NCBI GenBank assembly: GCA_040905465.1
Contig: JBBDRK010000017.1
Coordinates: 8,208-72,207 of the forward strand
Source: Trueperaceae bacterium
Lineage (GTDB): Bacteria > Deinococcota > Deinococci > Deinococcales > Trueperaceae
Direction of reading: 5' to 3'
DNA: 64,000 bases
Positions within the stretch are counted from its first letter, which is position 1. The number at the start of each line of letters is the position of its first letter. The notes under the pieces are model-generated. The model made no database searches. It had not been told where the DNA came from and worked only from the letters and a program-made list of their open reading frames with translations. Positions 53,817-64,000 of the stretch are shown here, one piece after another. A program made the translations under genes and the position numbers.

Positions 53817-55382
53817 ATGCTCGATACCCTCTTTAAGGACACCCGAATCGTGGACGGCTCAGGCAATCCCTGGTTCCGCGGGGACGTGGGCGTGGACGCC
53901 GGCAGGATCTCAGCCGTAGGAGACCTGACCGGATCATCTGCCCGCTCGGTCGTCGACGCACACGATTCCTATCTGACGCCGGGATTCATCGATGTCCACA
54001 CTCACTCGGACTTTTCCTTGCCCGCCTTCCCGCGGGCGGAGAGCCTGATATCCCAGGGAATCACGACCGAAATCGTCGGCAACTGCGGGCTCACGCCTCA
54101 CCCCGTCGGCCCCGACCGCCTCGATCTGATCCAGAAGTACACGGCCTTCCTGGGCGCGAAAATGCCCTGGGACTGGTCCTCCACCGCCGAATTCCTCGGT
54201 TACCTCGAGTCGTTGCCGCTCAGCCACGACGTCGTGACCCTCGTCGGGCACGGGAGCATCCGGGTAGCCGTAATGGGATTCGACGACCGCGCGCCCACCG
54301 CCGGCGAGCTCGACCTGATGAAGAAGTACGTGGGCCAAGCCATGGAGGCCGGTGCCGCCGGGCTCTCTTCCGGCCTCATCTATGCTCCAGGGAGCTCCGC
54401 CGCCAGCGATGAACTGAGTGAGCTGTGCTCCGTGGTTCGCCGCTTTCGTGGCATCTATACCACCCACCTTCGAGACGAGTCCACAGGCTTGATGTCCGCC
54501 GTCGAAGAGGCGCTGCAGATCGGCAAGAGTGCTGGAGTGCCGGTCCAGTTCTCGCACCACAAGGTGATGGGCGAGGCGAACTGGGGGTTGGTGCGGGAGA
54601 GCCTGGCGCGAATCGACCGGGCCCGGCGTGAGGGCCAGGACGTGACCCTCGACCAGTACCCTTACACCGGCTCGAGCACCACCTTCTCCGTCTTCCTTCC
54701 CGGCTGGGCGCTGGAAGGGGGCGTCGCGCGCCTGCTCGAGCGCCTCGGCGAGGAGGAGACCCGGCGTCGGATCGCCTTGGCCGCTCAAGGCACTGACTGG
54801 AGCCAGGTTCTGATCGCCGGACTCGCCAGAGCCGAGCACAAGGAGTACGAGGGGCTGAGCATCCACCAGTTGGGAGCGGCATTGGGCAAGGATCCGTTCG
54901 AAGCGGCCCTGGAACTGACTCTTGCCGAGGAAGGTCCCTTCTCGATCGTTCGCTTCGGCATGGCCGAGCAGGACGTGAAGTACGTCATGCGGCACCCGCA
55001 TGTGATGGTGGCCAGCGACGGCCACGCAATGTCACCCGAGCTGGGAGGCAAACCGCATCCCCGTAGCTACGGGACCTTCCCCCGGGTCCTCGGACGCTAT
55101 ACCGATGCACTGGGTGGGCTCAGTCTGGAAGAGAGCGTGCGGAAGATGACCTCCCTGCCGGCCCAGCGCTTCGGGCTGTGGGACCGTGGACTGATTCGGC
55201 CGGGCCAGCGCGCCGACCTCAACATGCTCAGCCCGACGATTTCGGATACCGCCACCTTCAACGACGCCCACTCCTACAGCCGCGGCGTCGAAAGCGTGCT
55301 GGTCAATGGCGAGCTTGTCTGGAACGAAGGTGGCGATACCGGTGCACGAGTCGGGAGGGTGGTCCGGAGTAGCCGTGCCTGA
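53817..55382 (+). CDS. N-acyl-D-amino-acid deacylase family amidohydrolase 2
   Basis: PGFIDVHTHSD, GNCG, HLRDE, SHHK, DQYPY, HPRSYGTFPRVL. Confidence 0.9.
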   Translation: MLDTLFKDTRIVDGSGNPWFRGDVGVDAGRISAVGDLTGSSARSVVDAHDSYLTPGFIDVHTHSDFSLPAFPRAESLISQGITTEIVGNCGLTPHPVGPDRLDLIQKYTAFLGAKMPWDWSSTAEFLGYLESLPLSHDVVTLVGHGSIRVAVMGFDDRAPTAGELDLMKKYVGQAMEAGAAGLSSGLIYAPGSSAASDELSELCSVVRRFRGIYTTHLRDESTGLMSAVEEALQIGKSAGVPVQFSHHKVMGEANWGLVRESLARIDRARREGQDVTLDQYPYTGSSTTFSVFLPGWALEGGVARLLERLGEEETRRRIALAAQGTDWSQVLIAGLARAEHKEYEGLSIHQLGAALGKDPFEAALELTLAEEGPFSIVRFGMAEQDVKYVMRHPHVMVASDGHAMSPELGGKPHPRSYGTFPRVLGRYTDALGGLSLEESVRKMTSLPAQRFGLWDRGLIRPGQRADLNMLSPTISDTATFNDAHSYSRGVESVLVNGELVWNEGGDTGARVGRVVRSSRA

Positions 55383-55403: not shown

Positions 55404-56225
55404 TTGAGCCGAGCTGAGTTCTGGAGCCGATTGCGCCACGACATCGAGCGGCGGGTCGACGCCTTCGACGGAGTCGCCGGGGTAGCACTCGCCGACCTTT
55501 CCTCCGGTGAGCGGTTGGAGGTGAGAGGGGCGGAGCGGTTCCCTTCCGCCTCGACGATCAAGATCCACCTGCTCGCGGCCCTCGTGCAACTACACCAGGA
55601 CGGTGTTGTCGACCTCGACGAGCGTGTCCGGGTCACGGGCGGGGTGCCTGGATCCGCGGTCCTCGGTTGCCTCGACGATCTCGTCGAGCTCACATGGCGT
55701 GATGTCGCCAACCTGATGATCATGGTTTCCGACAACACCGCTACCAACTTGATCATCGACCACATCGGCCTGGAGCGGATGGCGGAGTTTCTCGAGTTGT
55801 GGCAGTTGGGGAACACCGTTGTGGCCCGGAAGATGCAAGACGCCCGAGCGGTAGCCGCCGGCCTGGAGAACCTTGCGAGTCCGCTCGACACCCTTTCGCT
55901 GCTGGAACGACTCAGCTCGGGAGCCGGCTTTTCCACGGGCGTGGCAGAGGAATGCCTGCGGATCCTGAAGAAGCCGAAGAAGAGCCCGTTTCGCTCGGCC
56001 TTGCCGGCCTCCGTCGAGATGGCGAACAAACCGGGCGCCTTGCCGCGCGTTCAGTGTGAGGCGGCGATCGTGTACCTGCCCCGCCGGCCGTTCGGTCTCG
56101 TAATCATGTCGAGTTTCGGCCCCGTGGACCCCCGCGAGCAGACCTATTGGCTAACCGGTCTCGCCCGTTCGATATTCGACGCCATGGCGGTTCTCGACGC
56201 TTGCACGGAACATGGGCGAGGGTAG
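55404..56225 (+). CDS. Class A beta-lactamase-like serine hydrolase (no signal peptide)
   Basis: FPSASTIK (SxxK), SDNTATN, NKPG. Confidence 0.85.
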   Translation: MSRAEFWSRLRHDIERRVDAFDGVAGVALADLSSGERLEVRGAERFPSASTIKIHLLAALVQLHQDGVVDLDERVRVTGGVPGSAVLGCLDDLVELTWRDVANLMIMVSDNTATNLIIDHIGLERMAEFLELWQLGNTVVARKMQDARAVAAGLENLASPLDTLSLLERLSSGAGFSTGVAEECLRILKKPKKSPFRSALPASVEMANKPGALPRVQCEAAIVYLPRRPFGLVIMSSFGPVDPREQTYWLTGLARSIFDAMAVLDACTEHGRG

Positions 56226-56555: not shown

Positions 56556-57422
56556 CTAGCTTGGGGCCAGCCGCAGACTGGCCAACGCCCGTTCGATGGG
56601 CACATCCCTACGCTCGCGGTTCAGGACGTAGCTGACATGGGTGTAACCGGCTGCCAGTAGGTGACGGTAAGCCTCGTCGTAGCGGTCCGCGACCCGTTGC
56701 GGAACGTGCGCGTCGGCACCCACGACCACCGGAATGCCGCGCTCATGCATCTCGGACAGTATTCGCGGGCTGGGGTTCATCTCCGGGATCGCCTTGTTGA
56801 GACCCGAGGTGTTGAGTTCCATGGCGATGCCGGTGGCGGCGATGCGGTCCAGGCTGCGCAGGATGTGCCCTTCCACCCGACGGTAGTCCCACTCATCGGG
56901 AGCGATATTCTTGACCAGATCGGGGTGGGAGAGCGAATCGTAAAGGCCGGACTCGGCGGCGGCAACCAGGTGATCGAAATAGGTCATCTGGAACTCGAGC
57001 GCATTGCCGGTCCAGAACGCCTCCCGGTACTCGCTCATCTGAGGATGAACGGAACCGAGGATGTAGTCGAACTCGGCGGAGGCGAACTGGCGCTCGAGCC
57101 AGGCCTCCATTCCCGGAACGAAGTCGCCCTCGAGTCCGAGGCGCACTTCGACGATCCCGGCCATCGACTCGCGCGCTTGCGCCACCATCTCCAGGTACTG
57201 GCCGAACTGCTCGAGCGCCATTCGCGAACTGCTGGCGTAACCGCCCGGCAAGGGATTATGGCAGGTGACGATTATCCCCTTGAGCCCTCGTTCGCGAGCC
57301 ACGTCGGCGTATTCGGCGGGTGTACCGGTGGCATGGTTGCACAAGGGTGTGTGCATGTGGGTTTCGTAGACGAGCGGTTCGGCTGGGGTGGGGTCAGCGG
57401 TGATCGCGGAGCGTCCTTGCAT
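56556..57422 (-). CDS. PHP-family histidinol-phosphatase (HisJ/HisK-like)
   Basis: HMHTPLCNHA, DYILGSVH, HPDLVK, ELNTSG, GADAH; start uncertain. Confidence 0.85.
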   Translation of the reverse strand: MQGRSAITADPTPAEPLVYETHMHTPLCNHATGTPAEYADVARERGLKGIIVTCHNPLPGGYASSSRMALEQFGQYLEMVAQARESMAGIVEVRLGLEGDFVPGMEAWLERQFASAEFDYILGSVHPQMSEYREAFWTGNALEFQMTYFDHLVAAAESGLYDSLSHPDLVKNIAPDEWDYRRVEGHILRSLDRIAATGIAMELNTSGLNKAIPEMNPSPRILSEMHERGIPVVVGADAHVPQRVADRYDEAYRHLLAAGYTHVSYVLNRERRDVPIERALASLRLAPS

Positions 57423-57610
57423 ATAGGGAAGGATACGACGAGTGGCCATCGCGGCCCGTTCAGCGCGCGAACTTGAGGTGCGTGACCTCCTGGGCTGGGG
57501 CGGAGCCGACCGGAGCTGCCGGGCGCCAATGGCCTGGGTTCCTTCAAGGAGGAGTTTCGGCAGAGCGTATGGAGAATCCGGCATGTCGGAAATCGAGCTA
57601 ATCTGCCCAT

Positions 57611-57877
57611 ATGGACGTAGTGAAGCTCGGCAAGAAGGGACAGGTCAGTATCCCCAAGAGAATCCTGAGTGAGTTGGGACTCGAAGGGGACTCTATGCTG
57701 ATCGTGGATAGTACCGATGACGGCGCTATCTTGCTGCGCCCCGCCGGTGTATATCCCATCGAGACGTACAGCGATGAGCGGATTCGGAAGTTCCTGGAAG
57801 CCAATACCATGACACCGGAGGAAGAGGCGCGGGTAAGCGCCAAGCTTGATCAACTCAGGTCCGCTCGGGTGGAGTAG
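57611..57877 (+). CDS. AbrB/MazE/SpoVT-type antitoxin
   Basis: VKLGKKGQVSIPKRIL; TAATCT 6 nt before ATG; TCCG-N6-CGGA at 57577-57590. Confidence 0.88.
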   Translation: MDVVKLGKKGQVSIPKRILSELGLEGDSMLIVDSTDDGAILLRPAGVYPIETYSDERIRKFLEANTMTPEEEARVSAKLDQLRSARVE

Positions 57878-57884
57878 CTGCCGA

Positions 57885-58313
57885 TTGCTCCTCTCTCTGG
57901 ACGCCAACGTGCTCTTTGCCGCTGCATTCAATCCCGAGGGACGAGTGCAGCGGCTTTTCGACCTCGCCGAACTCAAGGCGTGCGATCTCCTCAGTTCGGC
58001 CTTCGCAATCGAGGAAGCCAGACGTAACCTTACGGTAAAGAGGCCAAAGGCGCTGGAGCGGTACAAGGACCGGTTGCGATTGGTCTCGATGACCGTCGAG
58101 CCAGCCGCGGAACTGATTGCTCAGATGGCGCAACACGTGCCGGCCAACGACGCACCGATACTCGCGGGCGCGATCGCAGCTCGTGCCGACGTACTGGTAA
58201 CGGGAGATCGGCGGCACTTCGGTGACTCTTATGGTCGGTCGATCGGCGGCGTGCTTGTCCTCACTCCACGCGAGGCCCTAGCCCAGGTGATCGGCGAAAC
58301 CGCGCCTCGCTGA
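57885..58313 (+). CDS. vapC: PIN-domain toxin (VapC-like)
   Basis: LDANVLF, IEEARRNL, DAPILAGA, LVTGDRRHFG; start uncertain. Confidence 0.8.
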   Translation: MLLSLDANVLFAAAFNPEGRVQRLFDLAELKACDLLSSAFAIEEARRNLTVKRPKALERYKDRLRLVSMTVEPAAELIAQMAQHVPANDAPILAGAIAARADVLVTGDRRHFGDSYGRSIGGVLVLTPREALAQVIGETAPR

Positions 58314-58490
58314 CCAGAGCGAAGTGGAATACCGGGAAGTCGCCGTGCGCTGCCTTCCCCGAGTCGATCCACCGTAGGTAGCCGAGATCAAGTAGGTCAG
58401 GTCGCCAGGCCGCTCTCCACCGACTGTTCGCTGTTTGCATGTCTTCTGACTTGCGCTGACCGGCGGAGAGAGCCGTCCCGACGGTGCTCC

Positions 58491-58535
58491 TTGACCTACG
58501 TCGCCACTTCAGATAATCTCATGACAGCGCTAACA
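58491..58535 (+). promoter_or_regulatory. sigma70-like promoter plus LacI-type operator of the LarA-family operon
   Basis: TTGACC-N17-TAATCT; TGACAGCGCTAACA at 58522-58535. Confidence 0.7.
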
Positions 58536-58602
58536 GGAACGAGTAAGACTCTCGGCCGGAGCGATGGGGCGGTAACCGCTTCGCGCTCGAAAGGGGAATC
58601 GC

Positions 58603-60018
58603 ATGCGTATCGACCTCGAGTACGGGGATGGCTACCTGCCCATAACGGTACCAGACAGCACGCCCGTAATCAGGGCAGGCGACGCCTTCGAGGAGCCGGC
58701 ACCGCTCGAAGATCCGGTGGAGGCGACCAGACAGGCGCTTGCCAATCCTATCGGCAGCAAGCGGATCGGCGAGGTGGTCGACAGCCGCTCGAAGGTCGTG
58801 ATCGGCTTCCCGGACCGGGTCAAGGGTGGCTTTCACTCAACCGCTCACCGCAAGGTCGCTATCCCGCTGATCCTCGACGAACTCGAGCGAGCCGGCGTCA
58901 AGGACGAGAACATCAAGCTGGTGTGTGGAATCGGGCTGCACCGGATGAACACTCACGAAGAGTTCGCCAGCTACCTGGGCGAGGACATCGTGAAGAGGTT
59001 CGGCTACACCGGCGTTGTCAACCACGACGCCGAGGACCCCGAGGGCATCGTCGTTCTGGGCAAAACCGATCACGGCGACTGGGTCGACTTCAATCGGCAC
59101 GCCTTCGAAGCGGACCTGACGATAATGCTGGGCCACACCATGGGCAACCCGTACGGTGGCTACAGCGGGGGCTACAAGATGCCCTGCACCGGTTTCACCA
59201 GTTGGCGCTCGATCCGCTGCCACCACACCCCGGCAACCATGTACCGCGACGATTTCGTCCCGGTGTCGACCGAGTCGCACTTTCGGCGCCAGCTTCGCGC
59301 TATCGGCAGCAAGGTGGAGTCGGAGATGAACAAGGATTTCTTCCTGGTGGACGCGGTTCTCAACGGCCGCTCGCAGCAGATGCAGGTGGTCGCGGGCTCC
59401 CCATCCGAGGTGGAGGAAGCCACCTGGCCGAAGGCCGCTACCCGTACCGACATCGAGATCGGCGGAGACAAGGCCAACGTCCTGGTCCTGGGAATACCGC
59501 GCTCGTTTCACTACGGCCCCGGAATGGGCACCAATCCGGTGCTGATGCTGCAAGGGATGGGTTCCTGGGTCGCGCGGGCGGCAGCCGTCATGGAGAAGGA
59601 CTTCGTGGTGATAGCCGCGTCAATATGCGACGGCTGGTTCAACGAGTCGTGGTTCCCGGCATACGAGTCCATCTACGACAAACTGCAGGACCTCACTGGC
59701 GCCAGCGAGCTCATCGACTTCGAGGAGGAGTTCGCCACGAACCCCGAGTGGGTGCACAAGTACCGCCGCGAATTCGCTTACCACCCGTTCCACGGCTTCT
59801 CTATGGCCTACATGGGTAGCCTTGCGACGCGCCAGGCGCTGAGCGTGTACGTGGTGGGCGCAAAGAAGCCGGGTTACGCCCGAGGCATGGGTTGTACCCC
59901 GGTGGCAACCTTCGAGGATGCGGTGGAGCGTTCCAGGCGGCTGATCTCCGGTGAGCCGCGCATGCTGGTGGTGCCCGCGGTGTCGAAGCCGGCCGTCCAC
60001 CTCAGGGCAGCAGGCTGA
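58603..60018 (+). CDS. larA: LarA-family nickel-pincer-nucleotide-dependent enzyme (divergent lactate racemase homolog)
   Basis: ALANPIGS, GLHR, NHD, GGYSGGYK, IRCHH; larC in the same operon. Confidence 0.85.
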   Translation: MRIDLEYGDGYLPITVPDSTPVIRAGDAFEEPAPLEDPVEATRQALANPIGSKRIGEVVDSRSKVVIGFPDRVKGGFHSTAHRKVAIPLILDELERAGVKDENIKLVCGIGLHRMNTHEEFASYLGEDIVKRFGYTGVVNHDAEDPEGIVVLGKTDHGDWVDFNRHAFEADLTIMLGHTMGNPYGGYSGGYKMPCTGFTSWRSIRCHHTPATMYRDDFVPVSTESHFRRQLRAIGSKVESEMNKDFFLVDAVLNGRSQQMQVVAGSPSEVEEATWPKAATRTDIEIGGDKANVLVLGIPRSFHYGPGMGTNPVLMLQGMGSWVARAAAVMEKDFVVIAASICDGWFNESWFPAYESIYDKLQDLTGASELIDFEEEFATNPEWVHKYRREFAYHPFHGFSMAYMGSLATRQALSVYVVGAKKPGYARGMGCTPVATFEDAVERSRRLISGEPRMLVVPAVSKPAVHLRAAG

Positions 60019-60025
60019 TAGGGCG

Positions 60026-60946
60026 ATGACCAGCCAACAGCGCAACACCACGGTACGGGGTCTTTCCGGCAGGGTCAACGACGCTCCGACCGTGGGTGTC
60101 GTGGGCCTCGGCCGCATGGGCTCGGCGATTGCCGAACGGCTGAGCGAGCGCTATCCGGTGCTGGGCTGGGATCTGCGCGCGGTCGCGGTCGCCGGCGTCG
60201 AGACGGTCGCGGACGCGGTGACGTTGGCCGAGCGCTGCGACGTGATCGTATCTTCGCTCCCGTCGGCGGTAGAGACCCGCCAGGTACTGCTGGACAGTGC
60301 CTTTCGCAGCGCGTTCGAACGTTCTGACGCTGTCTTCGTCGATGCCAGCACGTCCAGCCCTGACTCGATTCGTACGCTTGCCGACGAGCTCGGCGAACCG
60401 GGCGAGAGGCTGGTGGACGCGCCCATTCTCGGCCGCCCGGAAAGCTGTGGGTCGTGGACGATGCCGGTAGGCGGCACTGCCGGAGCGTTCGAACGAGTTC
60501 AACCGGTCCTCGGCCAGGTCGCCTCACGCCAGTTCCACGTGGGCGAGCTGGGCTCCGGCCACTCGATAAAGCTGCTCAACAACATGATGTTCGCCGCCAT
60601 CAACGTGATTACCGCCGAGGCCATCGGCGCTTGCGGACACATGGGCGTGAACCCCGAAGCGTTCGTGGAGATAGTCGGCGGCAGCACCGCGGCAACGGTT
60701 AGCCCGCTGTTCCGGTCGCTCGCCCCGCGCATGCTGGGCGAGGACCTCGAAACCGTGTTCACCGTCCGGCTGCTCGACAAGGACCTGCGCCTCGCCGTCG
60801 AGATGTGCCAACAGGCTGGAGTGCCGCTCATCTCGGCGCCGGCACTGCAGGAGGCCACGCGCCGGGCCCTGGAGCTGGGCCTTGCCGAGCAAGACAGCGC
60901 AGCCCTCGTATACCTCTACCGACCCGAGGCGAAGCATGAGCAGTAG
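60026..60946 (+). CDS. Beta-hydroxyacid dehydrogenase family NAD(P)-dependent oxidoreductase
   Basis: GVVGLGRMG, DAST, VDAPILG, KLLNN, KDLRLA. Confidence 0.88.
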   Translation: MTSQQRNTTVRGLSGRVNDAPTVGVVGLGRMGSAIAERLSERYPVLGWDLRAVAVAGVETVADAVTLAERCDVIVSSLPSAVETRQVLLDSAFRSAFERSDAVFVDASTSSPDSIRTLADELGEPGERLVDAPILGRPESCGSWTMPVGGTAGAFERVQPVLGQVASRQFHVGELGSGHSIKLLNNMMFAAINVITAEAIGACGHMGVNPEAFVEIVGGSTAATVSPLFRSLAPRMLGEDLETVFTVRLLDKDLRLAVEMCQQAGVPLISAPALQEATRRALELGLAEQDSAALVYLYRPEAKHEQ

Positions 60947-61727
60947 AATCGCGGTCGCTACCTCACCCGGCTGGAGCGGCTGGCTGACTCAGGCGGCCGT
61001 GCGAATCTCGCCCTTCATCGTGGTGATCATCCTGTGGCAACTGACGCACCTCAGCGGTGTGGTGTCGCAGGTACTGCTGCCTTCGCCGCTGGACGTGGTC
61101 AACTCGGCAATACGACTGATCCAACGAGGTGGGCTGTACCAGCACATCATTGCGAGCACGCTGCGTGTGCTCGTCGGTGTCGTTATCGGGGTAACGCTCG
61201 CCATCCCCGTGGGATTCGCTCTCGGCTGGTACAAGGGCGTTCGTGGCTTTCTCGACCCGCTAATCAACTTCTTTCGAGCTCTGCCGCCGATCGCGCTGGT
61301 GCCGCTGGTAGTGGTGTATGTCGGTATCGGCGAGAGCGGCCGGCTTTTCGTACTGATCTACGCCTCGTTCTTCCCGGCAGTGATCGTGATCTACGAGGGA
61401 ATCCTGGCCATCGAGTCGATCTATATCCGGGCGGCCCGGGTGCTCGGTGCCGACGGTCGCGAGCTGTTCCTGCGCGTGGTTCTGCCGCTCACGTTGCCAC
61501 ATATCCTCACCGCCTTTCGGGTCGCCCTGGGAGTCGCCTGGGCCACCCTGGTAGCAGCCGAACTGGTTGCGGCTCGGACAGGCCTGGGAGCGATGATTCA
61601 GGACGCCAGCAACTTCTTCCAGATACCGACGATCTTCCTGGGGATCATCATCATCGGCGCAGTTGCCCTGGTGATGGACTCCGCGGTTCGTGCCGCTATC
61701 GCCCGCTTCGTGACGTGGCGGGATTAG
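60936..61727 (+). CDS. NitT/TauT (SsuC/TauC-like) ABC permease
   Basis: LLPSPLDV, LPPIALVPL, AARVLGA, LVAAELVAARTGLG. Confidence 0.9.
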   Translation: MSSRIAVATSPGWSGWLTQAAVRISPFIVVIILWQLTHLSGVVSQVLLPSPLDVVNSAIRLIQRGGLYQHIIASTLRVLVGVVIGVTLAIPVGFALGWYKGVRGFLDPLINFFRALPPIALVPLVVVYVGIGESGRLFVLIYASFFPAVIVIYEGILAIESIYIRAARVLGADGRELFLRVVLPLTLPHILTAFRVALGVAWATLVAAELVAARTGLGAMIQDASNFFQIPTIFLGIIIIGAVALVMDSAVRAAIARFVTWRD

Positions 61728-61826
61728 ATGGGCAGGATTGAATGGGCGGTATCGAGTGGGCGAGATTGAAGGGCCGGGCTTGATATGGCGGGATTGAGTG
61801 GGCAGGACTGGCGTGGCGGGATCGAG
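61715..61826 (+). repeat. Eight degenerate 14-bp G-rich tandem units
   Basis: Consensus about TGGGCGGGATTGAG with period exactly 14. Confidence 0.8.
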
Positions 61827-61835
61827 GGAGAGCGA

Positions 61836-62648
61836 GTGACGGAGAACAGGATAGAGCGCAGCGGCATCAGCCTCGAGAACGTGAGCAAGAGCTTTGCCAC
61901 GCGCGAGGGGGAGCTCAAGGTACTGGAGAACTTGAGCTTCGAAGTAGAGGCGGGTGAGTCCGTCGCCGTGGTCGGTCCCAGTGGCTCGGGGAAGACCACG
62001 CTGCTGAACCTGCTGGCCGGACTCGACTTTCCGACAGGCGGGAGCATCAAGGTCGACGGCGAACCGATCACCGGCCCCAGTCCCCAGCGCGGGGTCATTT
62101 TCCAGCAGTACGCGGTGTTCCCGTACCTCACTGTTTTCGAAAACGCCGTCTTCGGCCTGCTGCTTGGCGCCAACCGAAAGCCGAAAGCCGAGCGCGACCG
62201 AATCGCGCGACGCTATCTGGAACTGATGGGCCTCAGCGGATTCGAGAACGCCTATCCCAAGACGCTCTCGGGCGGGATGAAGCAGCGTTTGGCGATAGCC
62301 CGTGCTTACGCGGTCAACCCCAAGATCCTGTTCATGGATGAGCCGTTCGCCGCGCTCGATGCCCAGACGCGCGCCCTCATGCAGGAGCTGATTCTCGAGA
62401 TCATGGCCGAGGAGCAGAAGACCGTGGTGTTCGTGACTCACTCCGTCGAGGAGGCGATCTTCATTGGAAACCGCATCGTGGTGGTATCCGCGCGCCCCGC
62501 CAAGGTCCACTCGATCATCGACATCCCCTTCGGTTTCCCGCGAGGCCCCGACGTAAAGACGAGTTCCGAGTTCATGTCGATCCGCCGGGAAGTCGAACAC
62601 CTGGTTCGCGAACAGTACGTGCTTGCTCACCCCGAGCTGGCCAAGTAA
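61836..62648 (+). CDS. NitT/TauT ABC ATP-binding protein
   Basis: GPSGSGKTT, YPKTLSGGMKQR, MDEPFAALD, VTH. Confidence 0.93.
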   Translation: MTENRIERSGISLENVSKSFATREGELKVLENLSFEVEAGESVAVVGPSGSGKTTLLNLLAGLDFPTGGSIKVDGEPITGPSPQRGVIFQQYAVFPYLTVFENAVFGLLLGANRKPKAERDRIARRYLELMGLSGFENAYPKTLSGGMKQRLAIARAYAVNPKILFMDEPFAALDAQTRALMQELILEIMAEEQKTVVFVTHSVEEAIFIGNRIVVVSARPAKVHSIIDIPFGFPRGPDVKTSSEFMSIRREVEHLVREQYVLAHPELAK

Positions 62649-62681
62649 GCAAGCACTCTTCTCTCAGGCCGGAGGTAGAAC

Positions 62682-63608
62682 ATGGCAAACGTGGTAGTTA
62701 CCGGCATCGCCGGCTGCATAGGAAGTTGGATCGCGCGGCACCTCCTCGAAGAGGGTCACCGGGTGATCGGGATAGATGTGGCCCAGGACCTGCCAAACGC
62801 CAGGTTGCTGGGGATCCAGGGTGACTTCGAACTGCACCGCATAGACGTCACCGACAGCGAGGCGTTTTCGGCAACGTTGCGAGATGCCCAGCCCGACGGG
62901 ATAATCCATCTCGCCTCGCTGTTGATGCCCAAGTGCAAGGAGAACCCGATGCTGTGCGTCGACGTGAACGTCAAGAGCTTCATGACGGTACTGGAGTCGG
63001 CGCGCGAGCTCGGCAGCAACGTAGCCTACGCCTCCAGCGCCTGGGTGCTGAACGCGCCCGAGGGCGACCGGATGGTGACCGAGGCCGACCCTACCGATCC
63101 CCAGAGCCTCTACGGCGTCTTCAAGATGGTCAACGAGGGGATGTCGCAAACCTACGCACGCGACTTCGGGGTGAAGAGCAACGGTCTCAGGCCTTATATC
63201 GTCTACGGACCGGGCCGCGAGGTAGGCCTCACCGCCGACATCAACTTGGCGTTGCTGGCGGCTTCGCGCGGCCAGCCCTACCGCATCGGATTCGGAGGCA
63301 CGGTGGCGCTGCATCACGCTTCCGACGTAGCCAAGTTGTTCATCAAGCTCGCACTTTCGCCGGTCGCCGGCGGCAAGGTCTACAACGTTCGCGGTACCGT
63401 TGAGCCGATGGCCGAGGTCGTGAACACAATCGAACGGGTCACCGGCACCAGCGGTCTTCTCGAGGCGGCCGACAACTCCTTGCCGATAGCCGCCAACCTC
63501 AGTGACGCGGCCCTGCAGAAGGACTACGGACCGTTCGACTACCTGTCGCTGGAAGAGGGCTTCGGCCAGACGCTTGGCGTTTACAGGCAGGCTGGCGTGC
63601 TTGAGTAG
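62682..63608 (+). CDS. NAD-dependent epimerase/dehydratase (extended SDR)
   Basis: TGIAGCIG, HLAS, ASS, YGVFK (YxxxK), VYGPG. Confidence 0.9.
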   Translation: MANVVVTGIAGCIGSWIARHLLEEGHRVIGIDVAQDLPNARLLGIQGDFELHRIDVTDSEAFSATLRDAQPDGIIHLASLLMPKCKENPMLCVDVNVKSFMTVLESARELGSNVAYASSAWVLNAPEGDRMVTEADPTDPQSLYGVFKMVNEGMSQTYARDFGVKSNGLRPYIVYGPGREVGLTADINLALLAASRGQPYRIGFGGTVALHHASDVAKLFIKLALSPVAGGKVYNVRGTVEPMAEVVNTIERVTGTSGLLEAADNSLPIAANLSDAALQKDYGPFDYLSLEEGFGQTLGVYRQAGVLE

Positions 63609-63670
63609 CGGCCCCGCCAATGGCCGGGACCGGTTTCGCCGGAGCGGGACGGGGCTACATGGGAGGTCCG

Positions 63671-64000
63671 ATGGCCGGGGACGAACGGCGTAAGCCTAAC
63701 CGCGTCTACCTCGATTGTTCAGCGGGGATCGCCGGAGACATGCTCCTCGGCGCTCTGCTGGACCTGGGAGCCTCGCTGGCCTACGTGCGCGCGGGGCTGG
63801 AGCGGCTCGAGCTGTCCGAGCCGTGGACGCTGGAGACGGAAGAGGTATTGCGGGCCGGTATTCGCGCTTGGCGCGCCGTGGTCACGGTCTCCGGAGAAGC
63901 GGCCGACGTTGCGTTTCAGGAGACGAACCCCGGCGACGATCGCTCGTCCGCCCATCCGTCCCACCGACACGATCACGGCGCCCATGATCACGGCGCCCAT
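63671..64000 (+). CDS. larC: LarC nickel-insertion protein, partial (runs off the window)
   Basis: Not in the ORF track; own translation: VYLDCSAGIAGDMLLGALLDLG, then His-rich HPSHRHDHGAHDHGAH (15-bp unit GATCACGGCGCCCAT twice); GGAGG RBS. Confidence 0.88.
   Translation, partial: MAGDERRKPNRVYLDCSAGIAGDMLLGALLDLGASLAYVRAGLERLELSEPWTLETEEVLRAGIRAWRAVVTVSGEAADVAFQETNPGDDRSSAHPSHRHDHGAHDHGAH

Follow-up and report, generated by a model that had tools for sequence, protein, structure and literature searches.

The window analysed here is a stretch of 64,000 nt from a Trueperaceae bacterium (contig 17, positions 8208-72207; genome of 3.53 Mb in 81 contigs, 95% complete). Towards its 3' end it carries a homologue of larA, the gene family of enzymes whose cofactor is the nickel-pincer nucleotide (NPN). 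It is followed by genes for a dehydrogenase of the HIBADH family, a TauC-like permease, a TauB-like ATPase and an extended short-chain dehydrogenase/reductase (SDR), and then by larC, larB, larE and lacI. These genes lie on the same strand with small gaps or overlaps and are hence read as an operon. The window ends within larC. The downstream sequence was examined as locus L004 (contig positions 66000-85999), in which a position plus 57792 gives the window coordinate. A summary is given in Table 1. An earlier note, written from the letters of the window, had placed the larA-like gene, a beta-hydroxyacid dehydrogenase, a NitT/TauT permease with its ATPase, the extended SDR and larC on one strand. 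Open reading frames (ORFs) and Pfam matches recover all of them on the plus strand, and larB, larE and the binding-protein gene, which it suspected beyond position 64000, are present in L004. The larA homologue securely belongs to a published LarA subfamily with a single catalytic histidine, and the pathway for its cofactor is encoded in the same operon.

Table 1. Features of the lar operon and its surroundings. Positions are window coordinates unless L004 is given; cut-offs are those of the respective NCBIfam models.
Feature	Position	Strand	Match
Upstream control region: TTGACC-N13-GATAAT, then 14-bp imperfect palindrome TGACAGCGCTAACA	58491-58515, then 58522-58535	+	
larA homologue, single-histidine (His to Asn) subfamily, 471 aa	58603-60018	+	Pfam Lar_N, E 7.5e-39
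HIBADH-family NAD(P) dehydrogenase	60026-60946 (ORF from 59951)	+	Pfam NAD_binding_2 and NAD_binding_11
NitT/TauT-type ABC permease, TauC/SsuC-like	60936-61727 (ORF open from 60882)	+	Pfam BPD_transp_1, E 6e-25
ABC ATPase, TauB-like	61785-62648	+	Pfam ABC_tran, E 9.3e-35
Extended SDR/epimerase, 308 aa	62682-63608	+	Pfam Epimerase, E 2.2e-34
larC, 5' part (first 127 codons)	63620-64000, open at window end	+	Pfam Ni_insertion, E 3.3e-16
larB	L004 7363-8271		LarB 256.9 bits (cut-off 175)
larE	L004 8264-9088		LarE 321.9 bits (cut-off 150)
LacI-family regulator	L004 9085-10116		P. aeruginosa GntR 343.8 bits (cut-off 400), IdnR 242.5 (cut-off 500)
NMT1/SsuA-type binding protein	L004 10326-11303, 209-bp gap after lacI		SsuA_fam 120.6 bits (cut-off 163.5), TauA 68 (cut-off 304)
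Isochorismatase-family hydrolase	L004 11334-12143	+	Weak RutB-like, biuret-amidohydrolase-like and nicotinamidase-like matches
NicO-like nickel permease and 235-aa ORF without family match	L004 12182-13592	-	Pfam NicO, E 1.5e-06

The larA homologue starts with an ATG that has GGGGA just before it. The earlier note had let the gene begin at 58491, a position that coincides with the TTGACC hexamer of the TTGACC-N13-GATAAT sequence seen by eye. The ORF at 58491-59819 (442 aa) lies in another reading frame, shows no Pfam match and was rejected as larA. The encoded protein has the motifs DRVK (D71, K74), GLHR (H113), MGNPYGGYSGGYK (N182 to K192) and IRCHH (H208). The third of these covers G-N182-P-Y-G-G-Y-S-G-G-Y-K192, with the Asn ten residues ahead of the Lys, and H208 follows K192 at a spacing of 16 residues, as His211 follows Lys195 in LarA_Sp (see below). 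Together with H303, Y304, H397 and R427 these are the key residues considered here. In a HMMER alignment N182 faces the His in the H-Y-K loop of the malate racemase Mar2, whose residues Y172 and K173 are the two after the catalytic His (Desguin 2020), and K74 faces the conserved Arg of Mar2. The alignment thus confirms what had been read by eye: the first catalytic His (GLHR), the cofactor Lys and the Ni-ligating His are kept as H113, K192 and H208, while the motif of the second catalytic His is changed and DxTR has become DRVK.

Residue conservation was counted over the best 120 homologues from the database (identity 54-83%) and over 94 environmental LarA ORFs taken from the related loci described below. 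Each tallied column is invariant in the database homologues, N182 included (Asn in 120/120). R427 was outside that tally and is conserved to at least 90% in a 34-sequence alignment. Among the environmental ORFs the ten residues are kept in 91-94 of 94, depending on the residue; Asn is found at N182 in 92, and H303, Y304, H397 and R427 are found in 92-94.

A phmmer search against the PDB assigned the full-length protein to two chains, 9q2u_A (residues 1-468, 458 bits, E 2.4e-136) and 9q3j_A (406 bits, E 2.1e-120). The next solved LarA-family chain is Mar2 (E 9e-27), and none of the other solved chains of the family exceeds 97 bits. The structure was modelled using AlphaFold2 on the 34-sequence alignment (pLDDT 93.7, pTM 0.92) and compared using Foldseek. 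The model superposes on 9q3k_A with a template modelling (TM) score of 0.96 at 45% identity and on the 9q3j chains with 0.89-0.94 at 38% identity. The respective values for LarA, Mar2 and the Isosphaera enzyme are 0.62-0.73 and 18-21%, about 0.7 being reached with LarA and Mar2. These include the superposition on LarA suggested in the earlier note. Both sequence and fold are nearer to the two chains above than to the other solved LarA-family chains (TM 0.96 vs at most 0.73).

These chains are LarA_Sp of Streptococcus plurextorum (PDB 9Q2U/9Q3K) and LarA_Bw of Blautia wexlerae (PDB 9Q3J), with which Gatreddi et al. (Protein Sci 2025, PMC12611868) defined a LarA subfamily that has an invariant Asn in place of the second catalytic His. 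According to the report this position is His174 in LarA_Lp and Asn185 in LarA_Sp, the NPN is held by Lys195 and His211 of LarA_Sp, and the protein forms an octamer assembled from tail-to-tail dimers. Moreover a 316-Da ligand, left unidentified by the authors, is described close to His115, His306, Tyr307 and His401 of LarA_Sp. The residues D71, K74, H113, N182, K192 and H208 of the window protein correspond to Asp73, Lys76, His115, Asn185, Lys195 and His211 of LarA_Sp, with a gapless alignment of N182...K192 to N185...K195. H303, Y304, H397 and R427 correspond to His306, Tyr307, His401 and the dimer Arg431. All three proteins share the GNPYGGYSGGYK loop with Asn for the second catalytic His, the Asp/Lys pair of DRVK, the Ni-binding His, the pocket of His-Tyr and a further His, the Arg at the dimer interface and the fold. 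The window protein is about 30 residues shorter than LarA_Sp and LarA_Bw. Section 2.5 of the report prints His221/His223 as the Ni-binding His of LarA_Sp/LarA_Bw, whereas section 2.4 has His211/His213 and counting the residues of the PDB chains leads to the same pair; His221/His223 is probably a misprint.

The better known members of the family are more remote. L. plantarum LarA (5HUQ/6C1W), Mar2 and the broad-spectrum LarA of Isosphaera pallida have in common with the window protein the Lar_N domain, the first catalytic His of the GLHR type, the NPN-tethering Lys, the Ni-binding His 16 residues on and the dependence on LarB, LarC and LarE. In contrast, the window protein has Asn for their second His and Lys for their phosphate/carboxylate-binding Arg, and their C-domain substrate residues differ from its own, judged by those given in PMC12611868. 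The NCBIfam model for LarA (NF033504) scores 111 bits against a cut-off of 460, which places the protein outside the classical lactate racemases. It is also far under the cut-off of every other curated model of this kind, namely those for malate racemases, LarAH10 and LarAH14/15/16. The best curated LarA-type model is NF052592 (LarAH14/15/16, NPN-dependent hydroxyacid isomerase) with 199.3 bits against a cut-off of 740; this match is split in two stretches, is best over residues 6-257 and does not make the protein a member.

Public sources label many of the homologues 'lactate racemase', and an ordinary lactate racemase, or else an inactive relic of one, was therefore considered. Either is very improbable. 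Apart from the low LarA score, the equivalent of His174 is Asn in 120/120 and 92/94 relatives, and LarA_Sp was without lactate racemase activity according to section 2.5 of PMC12611868. The strictly conserved NPN-binding residues and the genome's only larBCE set in the same operon argue against a relic. The view that the gene does not encode a lactate racemase, already taken in the earlier note, is thus well founded: the model score, the low identity to solved LarAs, the Asn branch and the inactivity of LarA_Sp on lactate all agree with it. The accompanying idea of a novel divergent enzyme was overtaken, since the subfamily and its missing His were published together with structures in 2025 (PMC12611868).

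LarB, LarC and LarE all exceed their NCBIfam cut-offs, for LarC with 202.9 bits for LarC1 (cut-off 90) and 146.5 bits for LarC2 (cut-off 50) in the sequence beyond the window. A biosynthesis set for the NPN cofactor is hence present. Searching the genome with tblastn returned a single larA, larB, larC and larE, so the window enzyme is the sole LarA-type client of this pathway as far as visible. Directly past the window end, larC contains a run of 100 N (L004 6209-6308, window 64001-64100). The run sits between two copies of a His-rich coding repeat with GATCACGGCGCCCAT twice on each side, and the reading frames differ across it. A scaffold gap at the repeat is the probable cause. A programmed frameshift and a 130-bp duplication were considered for larC and rejected, as the DNA shows a 100-N assembly gap between repeats. 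The NicO-like permease and its companion ORF face the end of the lar cluster, and the permease is a plausible source of nickel for the cofactor. The isochorismatase-family hydrolase reaches 31.5 bits with the NCBIfam nicotinamidase model (cut-off 174) and scores higher in RutB-like matches. Possible roles for it are an action on the substrate of the pathway or the provision of nicotinate towards NPN synthesis.

The 14-bp imperfect palindrome TGACAGCGCTAACA ends 68 bp ahead of the larA start. The identical 14-mer recurs at L004 10173-10186 (window-equivalent 67965-67978), between lacI and the binding-protein gene. Among 13 close relatives, six (L005, L008-L011 and L022) carry a related palindrome upstream of larA, at a distance of 63-92 bp, and two of these six, L011 and L022, have the perfect palindrome TGATAGCGCTATCA; in the other seven (L006, L007, L013, L018 and L023-L025) none is found. 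On these grounds the palindrome is likely to be the operator of the operon's own LacI-type repressor. A second unit preceded by this operator would probably begin with the SsuA/TauA-like binding protein. A scan for consensus promoters over 57800-64000 returned one site in all, which equals the chance expectation, and a terminator scan gave nothing above chance.

The repressor points to acid sugars. Its nearest models are those of P. aeruginosa GntR and IdnR (Table 1), and it resembles gluconate/idonate regulators. The operon could accordingly serve a pathway for an aldonic or related sugar acid in which the NPN enzyme epimerises one hydroxyl, like the LarA-family gluconate and mannonate 2-epimerases, using a relocated proton donor (His303, Tyr304 or His397). 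Gluconate and mannonate are indeed used by characterised LarA homologues (PMC11770544), and the three residues correspond to those that touch the 316-Da ligand in LarA_Sp (PMC12611868). The single-histidine subfamily is however far from the GntE groups. The importer does not support a sugar acid either: we know of no importer of the NitT/TauT family for such compounds.

The importer itself shows similarity to sulfonate systems. The permease reaches 168 bits with TauC (cut-off 342) and 133 bits with SsuC (cut-off 347), the ATPase 218 bits with the taurine ATPase TauB (cut-off 357). For the binding protein the nearest solved structure is TauA (E 1.3e-13), with SsuA-type proteins also near, and SsuA_fam is its best NCBIfam model. 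All three components stay below the equivalog cut-offs and are therefore not members of TauABC or SsuABC. As the similarity holds at family level only, no transported substrate is assigned. The PDB matches of the extended SDR are weak (at most 87 bits) and comprise sugar-nucleotide enzymes, threonine dehydrogenase and uronate dehydrogenase.

The dehydrogenase gene probably starts with the ATG at 60026, eight bases past the larA stop. The best PDB matches of its product are 2-(hydroxymethyl)glutarate dehydrogenase, tartronate semialdehyde reductase and sulfolactaldehyde reductase (E 1e-29 to 1e-25). Every NCBIfam equivalog is far under its cut-off, including L-threonate dehydrogenase (115.9 bits, cut-off 350), sulfolactaldehyde reductase (112.6, cut-off 348) and tartronate semialdehyde reductase (110, cut-off 397). 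The substrate loop reads DAPILGRP, where the family normally has DAPVSGG; the latter was seen in residue-by-residue alignments to the solved relatives 3cky, 1vpd and 1wp4. Among the LarA-linked homologues that cover the motif, 57 of 58 read D-x-P-(V/I)-L-G-R-P, and the sole exception is found 2 kb from larA; six further dehydrogenase ORFs did not cover it. By its sequence the LarA-linked dehydrogenase is a distinct clade of the HIBADH family. The conserved Arg of the loop hints at a substrate that carries an additional anionic group or one of an unusual kind.

A sulfonate would be such a substrate. The importer may take up a C3 sulfonate or a product of sulfo-sugar breakdown (sulfolactate, dihydroxypropanesulfonate or sulfolactaldehyde), sulfolactate, or another 2-hydroxy sulfonate related to it, would be inverted by the NPN enzyme, and the role of the HIBADH homologue would be like that of a sulfolactaldehyde reductase. 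Both the E. coli sulfolactaldehyde reductase YihU (6SM7) and tartronate semialdehyde reductase (1VPD) share the HIBADH fold and the catalytic Lys-x-x-Asn motif with the window dehydrogenase, and YihU also shares the unusual Gly-Arg in the substrate loop. In YihU the backbone amide of this Arg (Arg123) forms the sulfonate pocket together with Asn174 and Ser178 (PMC8006165). The resemblance has its limits. The scores of both enzymes to the window dehydrogenase are just 92-102 bits, the YihU loop reads GRTS (SGG in the canonical form) as opposed to the LGRP of the window dehydrogenase, which is one residue longer, and Ser178 is replaced by Phe. Given these differences and the score of 112.6 against 348, the window dehydrogenase was rejected as a YihU orthologue. 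A literature search combining LarA and sulfoquinovose gave no LarA enzyme in the titles and abstract openings among the matches listed, and such a link may still be in print.

To follow the genomic context, 97 related loci were compiled, 17 from species-representative genomes and 80 from metagenomes. The latter are the best 80 of 553 stretches that encoded a relative, out of 597 listed as matching. The genome loci include entries titled Truepera or Trueperaceae at 65-78% identity and two more in that range titled 'uncultured bacterium'. Those at 47-58% identity come from Acidobacteria, Anaerolineae, Chloroflexia, Candidatus Fervidifonticultor and a delta-proteobacterium. The ORFs lying up to 6 kb from larA were all grouped into clusters, overlapping and antisense clusters were set aside by hand, and the representatives of the clusters were assigned to Pfam families. 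A locus counted as assessable if it had at least 1.5 kb of sequence on both sides of larA (n=47).

Of these, 28 have a HIBADH-family gene no more than 400 bp from larA, and 34 have one within 3 kb. An orthologous extended SDR is found within 3 kb in 14, and one or the other of the two in 42. The neighbourhood is thus conserved, and the refutation that the earlier note had set out for its own reading fails. TauT-type importer genes and CUT1 sugar-type importer genes occur in 16 loci each, a 647-aa protein of the alkaline phosphatase superfamily (Pfam Phosphodiest) in 13, a LacI regulator in 14 and a GntR/UTRA regulator in 8. Two gene orders recur. One consists of LacI, binding protein, TauC, ATPase, SDR, LarA and HIBADH, the other of SBP1, two permeases, Phosphodiest, (LacI), LarA, a MalK-type ATPase and HIBADH. 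Three loci (L090, L098 and L101) combine both blocks. The window gene and its environmental relatives are hence tied to a dehydrogenase of the HIBADH clade, to an extended SDR and to importers of either the TauT type or CUT1, unlike LarA_Sp and LarA_Bw, for which glycolysis-like neighbours are given in PMC12611868. Taken together it is well supported that the LarA-like gene is part of a repressor-controlled uptake and catabolic operon with conserved links to an LGRP-type dehydrogenase and to importers.

Minor neighbours bear on the substrate. An enolase-superfamily dehydratase, a DHDPS-family aldolase, a D-2-hydroxyacid dehydrogenase, the carboxylate transporter TctABC and a Zn-dependent alcohol dehydrogenase are found in 3-5 loci each, a FucA-type aldolase (284 bits, cut-off 264) in 3. 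All of these except the alcohol dehydrogenase would suit a sugar acid, as would an enolase-superfamily gene 12 kb downstream in the window genome. Such sugar-acid genes are however confined to a minority of loci. With repressor and neighbours on one side and importer type and subfamily distance on the other, the acid-sugar pathway is a possible but rather doubtful explanation. TauE/SafE exporters in 3 loci and sulfatases in 4 would fit a sulfonate. On the other hand, the neighbour families annotated for the operon and for the 97 related loci included no sulfo-lyase, no Xsc-type enzyme and no other desulfonating enzyme, the CUT1 sugar importer is as frequent as the TauT type (16 vs 16 of 47), and the repressor is of the gluconate/idonate kind. 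Considering also the replaced Ser178, we regard the sulfonate pathway as unlikely.

In eight of the 97 loci a beta-keto-acid cleavage enzyme (BKACE) lies beside the gene, which would fit a keto product and speaks for an NPN reaction other than epimerisation. With a single acid/base, one could envisage net oxidation or reduction, the shuttling of hydride from one substrate to another, or an oxidation that is transient and opens the way to a step such as aldose-ketose isomerisation, elimination or retro-aldol cleavage. Asn cannot serve as acid/base, and the authors of PMC12611868 expect substrates and processing probably unlike those of known LarAs. In addition, an NPN enzyme with an aldo-keto-reductase fold was reported in 2026 to perform intermolecular hydride transfer on sugars (PMC13524815). 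Although this fold is unrelated, it indicates that NPN chemistry is wider than racemisation. Direct evidence of such a reaction in the LarA fold is lacking, however, and the LarA homologues characterised according to PMC11770544 and Desguin 2020 are all racemases or epimerases. Moreover net redox is already accounted for by the NAD(P) dehydrogenase that is tightly linked to the gene. Chemistry of this kind therefore seems improbable to us, about on a par with the sulfonate pathway.

Several further genes were seen near larA. A TM1506/DUF1893 domain, fused to or beside the S component of an ECF transporter, directly follows the HIBADH gene in eight loci (L014, L016, L017, L020, L035, L041, L042 and L075); uptake of a vitamin or precursor is a possibility for this module. 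In the window, a MazE-type antitoxin (88 aa) overlapping a PIN-domain toxin (155 aa) is located directly upstream of the lar operon (57611-58313, plus strand) and is unrelated to it. Further upstream an Amidohydro_3 protein (53817-55382), a class A-type beta-lactamase-family protein (55404-56225) and a PHP-domain protein (56556-57584, minus strand) are encoded, apparently also unrelated. Downstream, L004 13676-19884 (minus strand) encodes a second regulator of the LacI type together with an Opp-type ABC importer and an enzyme of the enolase superfamily (MR_MLE). This looks like a neighbouring cluster of the acid-sugar type. The SBP_bac_5 gene of the Opp-type importer is apparently split in two ORFs (L004 16739-17629 and 17199-18275).

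Based on this analysis, it is highly probable that the gene encodes an NPN enzyme of the single-histidine LarA subfamily, first in a LacI-controlled catabolic uptake operon, and not a lactate racemase. By homology with the holo structure of LarA_Sp, the cofactor would be made by LarC, LarB and LarE of the operon, perhaps with nickel delivered by the adjacent NicO-like permease. It would be tethered to Lys192, with the nickel completed by His208. His113 would be the sole classical acid/base, Asn182 would take the place of the second, and His303, Tyr304 and His397 would line the substrate pocket. Under the probable control of the LacI-family repressor, an anionic sugar-derived hydroxy compound would be imported. 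The NPN enzyme may then transiently oxidise a secondary alcohol, passing the hydride to the cofactor, and return it to yield an inverted or isomerised product, which the adjacent HIBADH-type dehydrogenase would oxidise or reduce. Chemistry and substrate in this scheme are a guess reached by inference, and so is the sulfo- or sugar-acid substrate suggested in the earlier note. A sugar acid is favoured by the kind of repressor and by neighbours such as the enolase, DHDPS and Tct genes, a sulfonate or another hetero-anion by the TauA/SsuA-like importer, by Gly-Arg in the loop and by the TauE, sulfatase and phosphodiesterase genes that occasionally lie nearby.

More tentatively, and with somewhat less than an even chance of being right, we propose that the single-His NPN enzyme, the LGRP-loop dehydrogenase and, in this lineage, the extended SDR form the core of an undescribed catabolic route. 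Its substrate would be a small anionic sugar-derived compound, possibly with a sulfonate, phosphonate, phosphate or second carboxylate group. In some bacteria it could be imported directly by the TauT-type system, in others by the CUT1 system as a conjugate from which it may be freed by the alkaline-phosphatase-type hydrolase. The NPN step would be a stereoinversion that runs one way, or else a reaction that is new to the LarA fold.

Some observations weigh against the role proposed for the enzyme and its operon. The promoter scan called no site upstream of larA, so that the arrangement of the genes behind one promoter, as assumed in the earlier note, is not shown. In five of the 47 assessable loci, clustering places neither HIBADH nor SDR close to larA, and two of these carry BKACE and a methyltransferase instead. 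The counts refer to loci and not to independent evolutionary events, several loci being near-duplicates in architecture. The 100 N and the change of frame across the gap leave an intact LarC unproven. Finally, PMC12611868 reports that no substrate was found for the subfamily and calls its link to carbohydrate metabolism speculative. Its authors propose a one-way racemase/epimerase or a different chemistry, and epimerisation with a single His is mechanistically unsettled.

That the second His is missing, and that such an enzyme is no lactate racemase, had already been published (PMC12611868). New here are the variant with a TauT-type importer, an SDR and its own larCBE and nickel permease, the operator, and the loop of the partner dehydrogenase, with the reservation that the supplementary phylogeny and neighbourhood figures of that report may already show some of the neighbourhoods. 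The reaction of single-histidine LarA enzymes is an open question that was raised by specialists in 2025 on structures without substrate (PMC12611868). The locus described here unites the enzyme with the sole cofactor-synthesis genes of the genome, a dedicated importer and its soluble binding protein, a repressor whose operator can be recognised, and two dehydrogenases as partners. It is thus not a surprise but a useful and compact handle on that question. With the strictly conserved LGRP loop, and with importers that alternate between the TauT type and CUT1, the search is narrowed to anionic compounds resembling sugars. Should the chemistry turn out to be other than racemisation, the nickel-pincer cofactor would have a wider range within the LarA fold.

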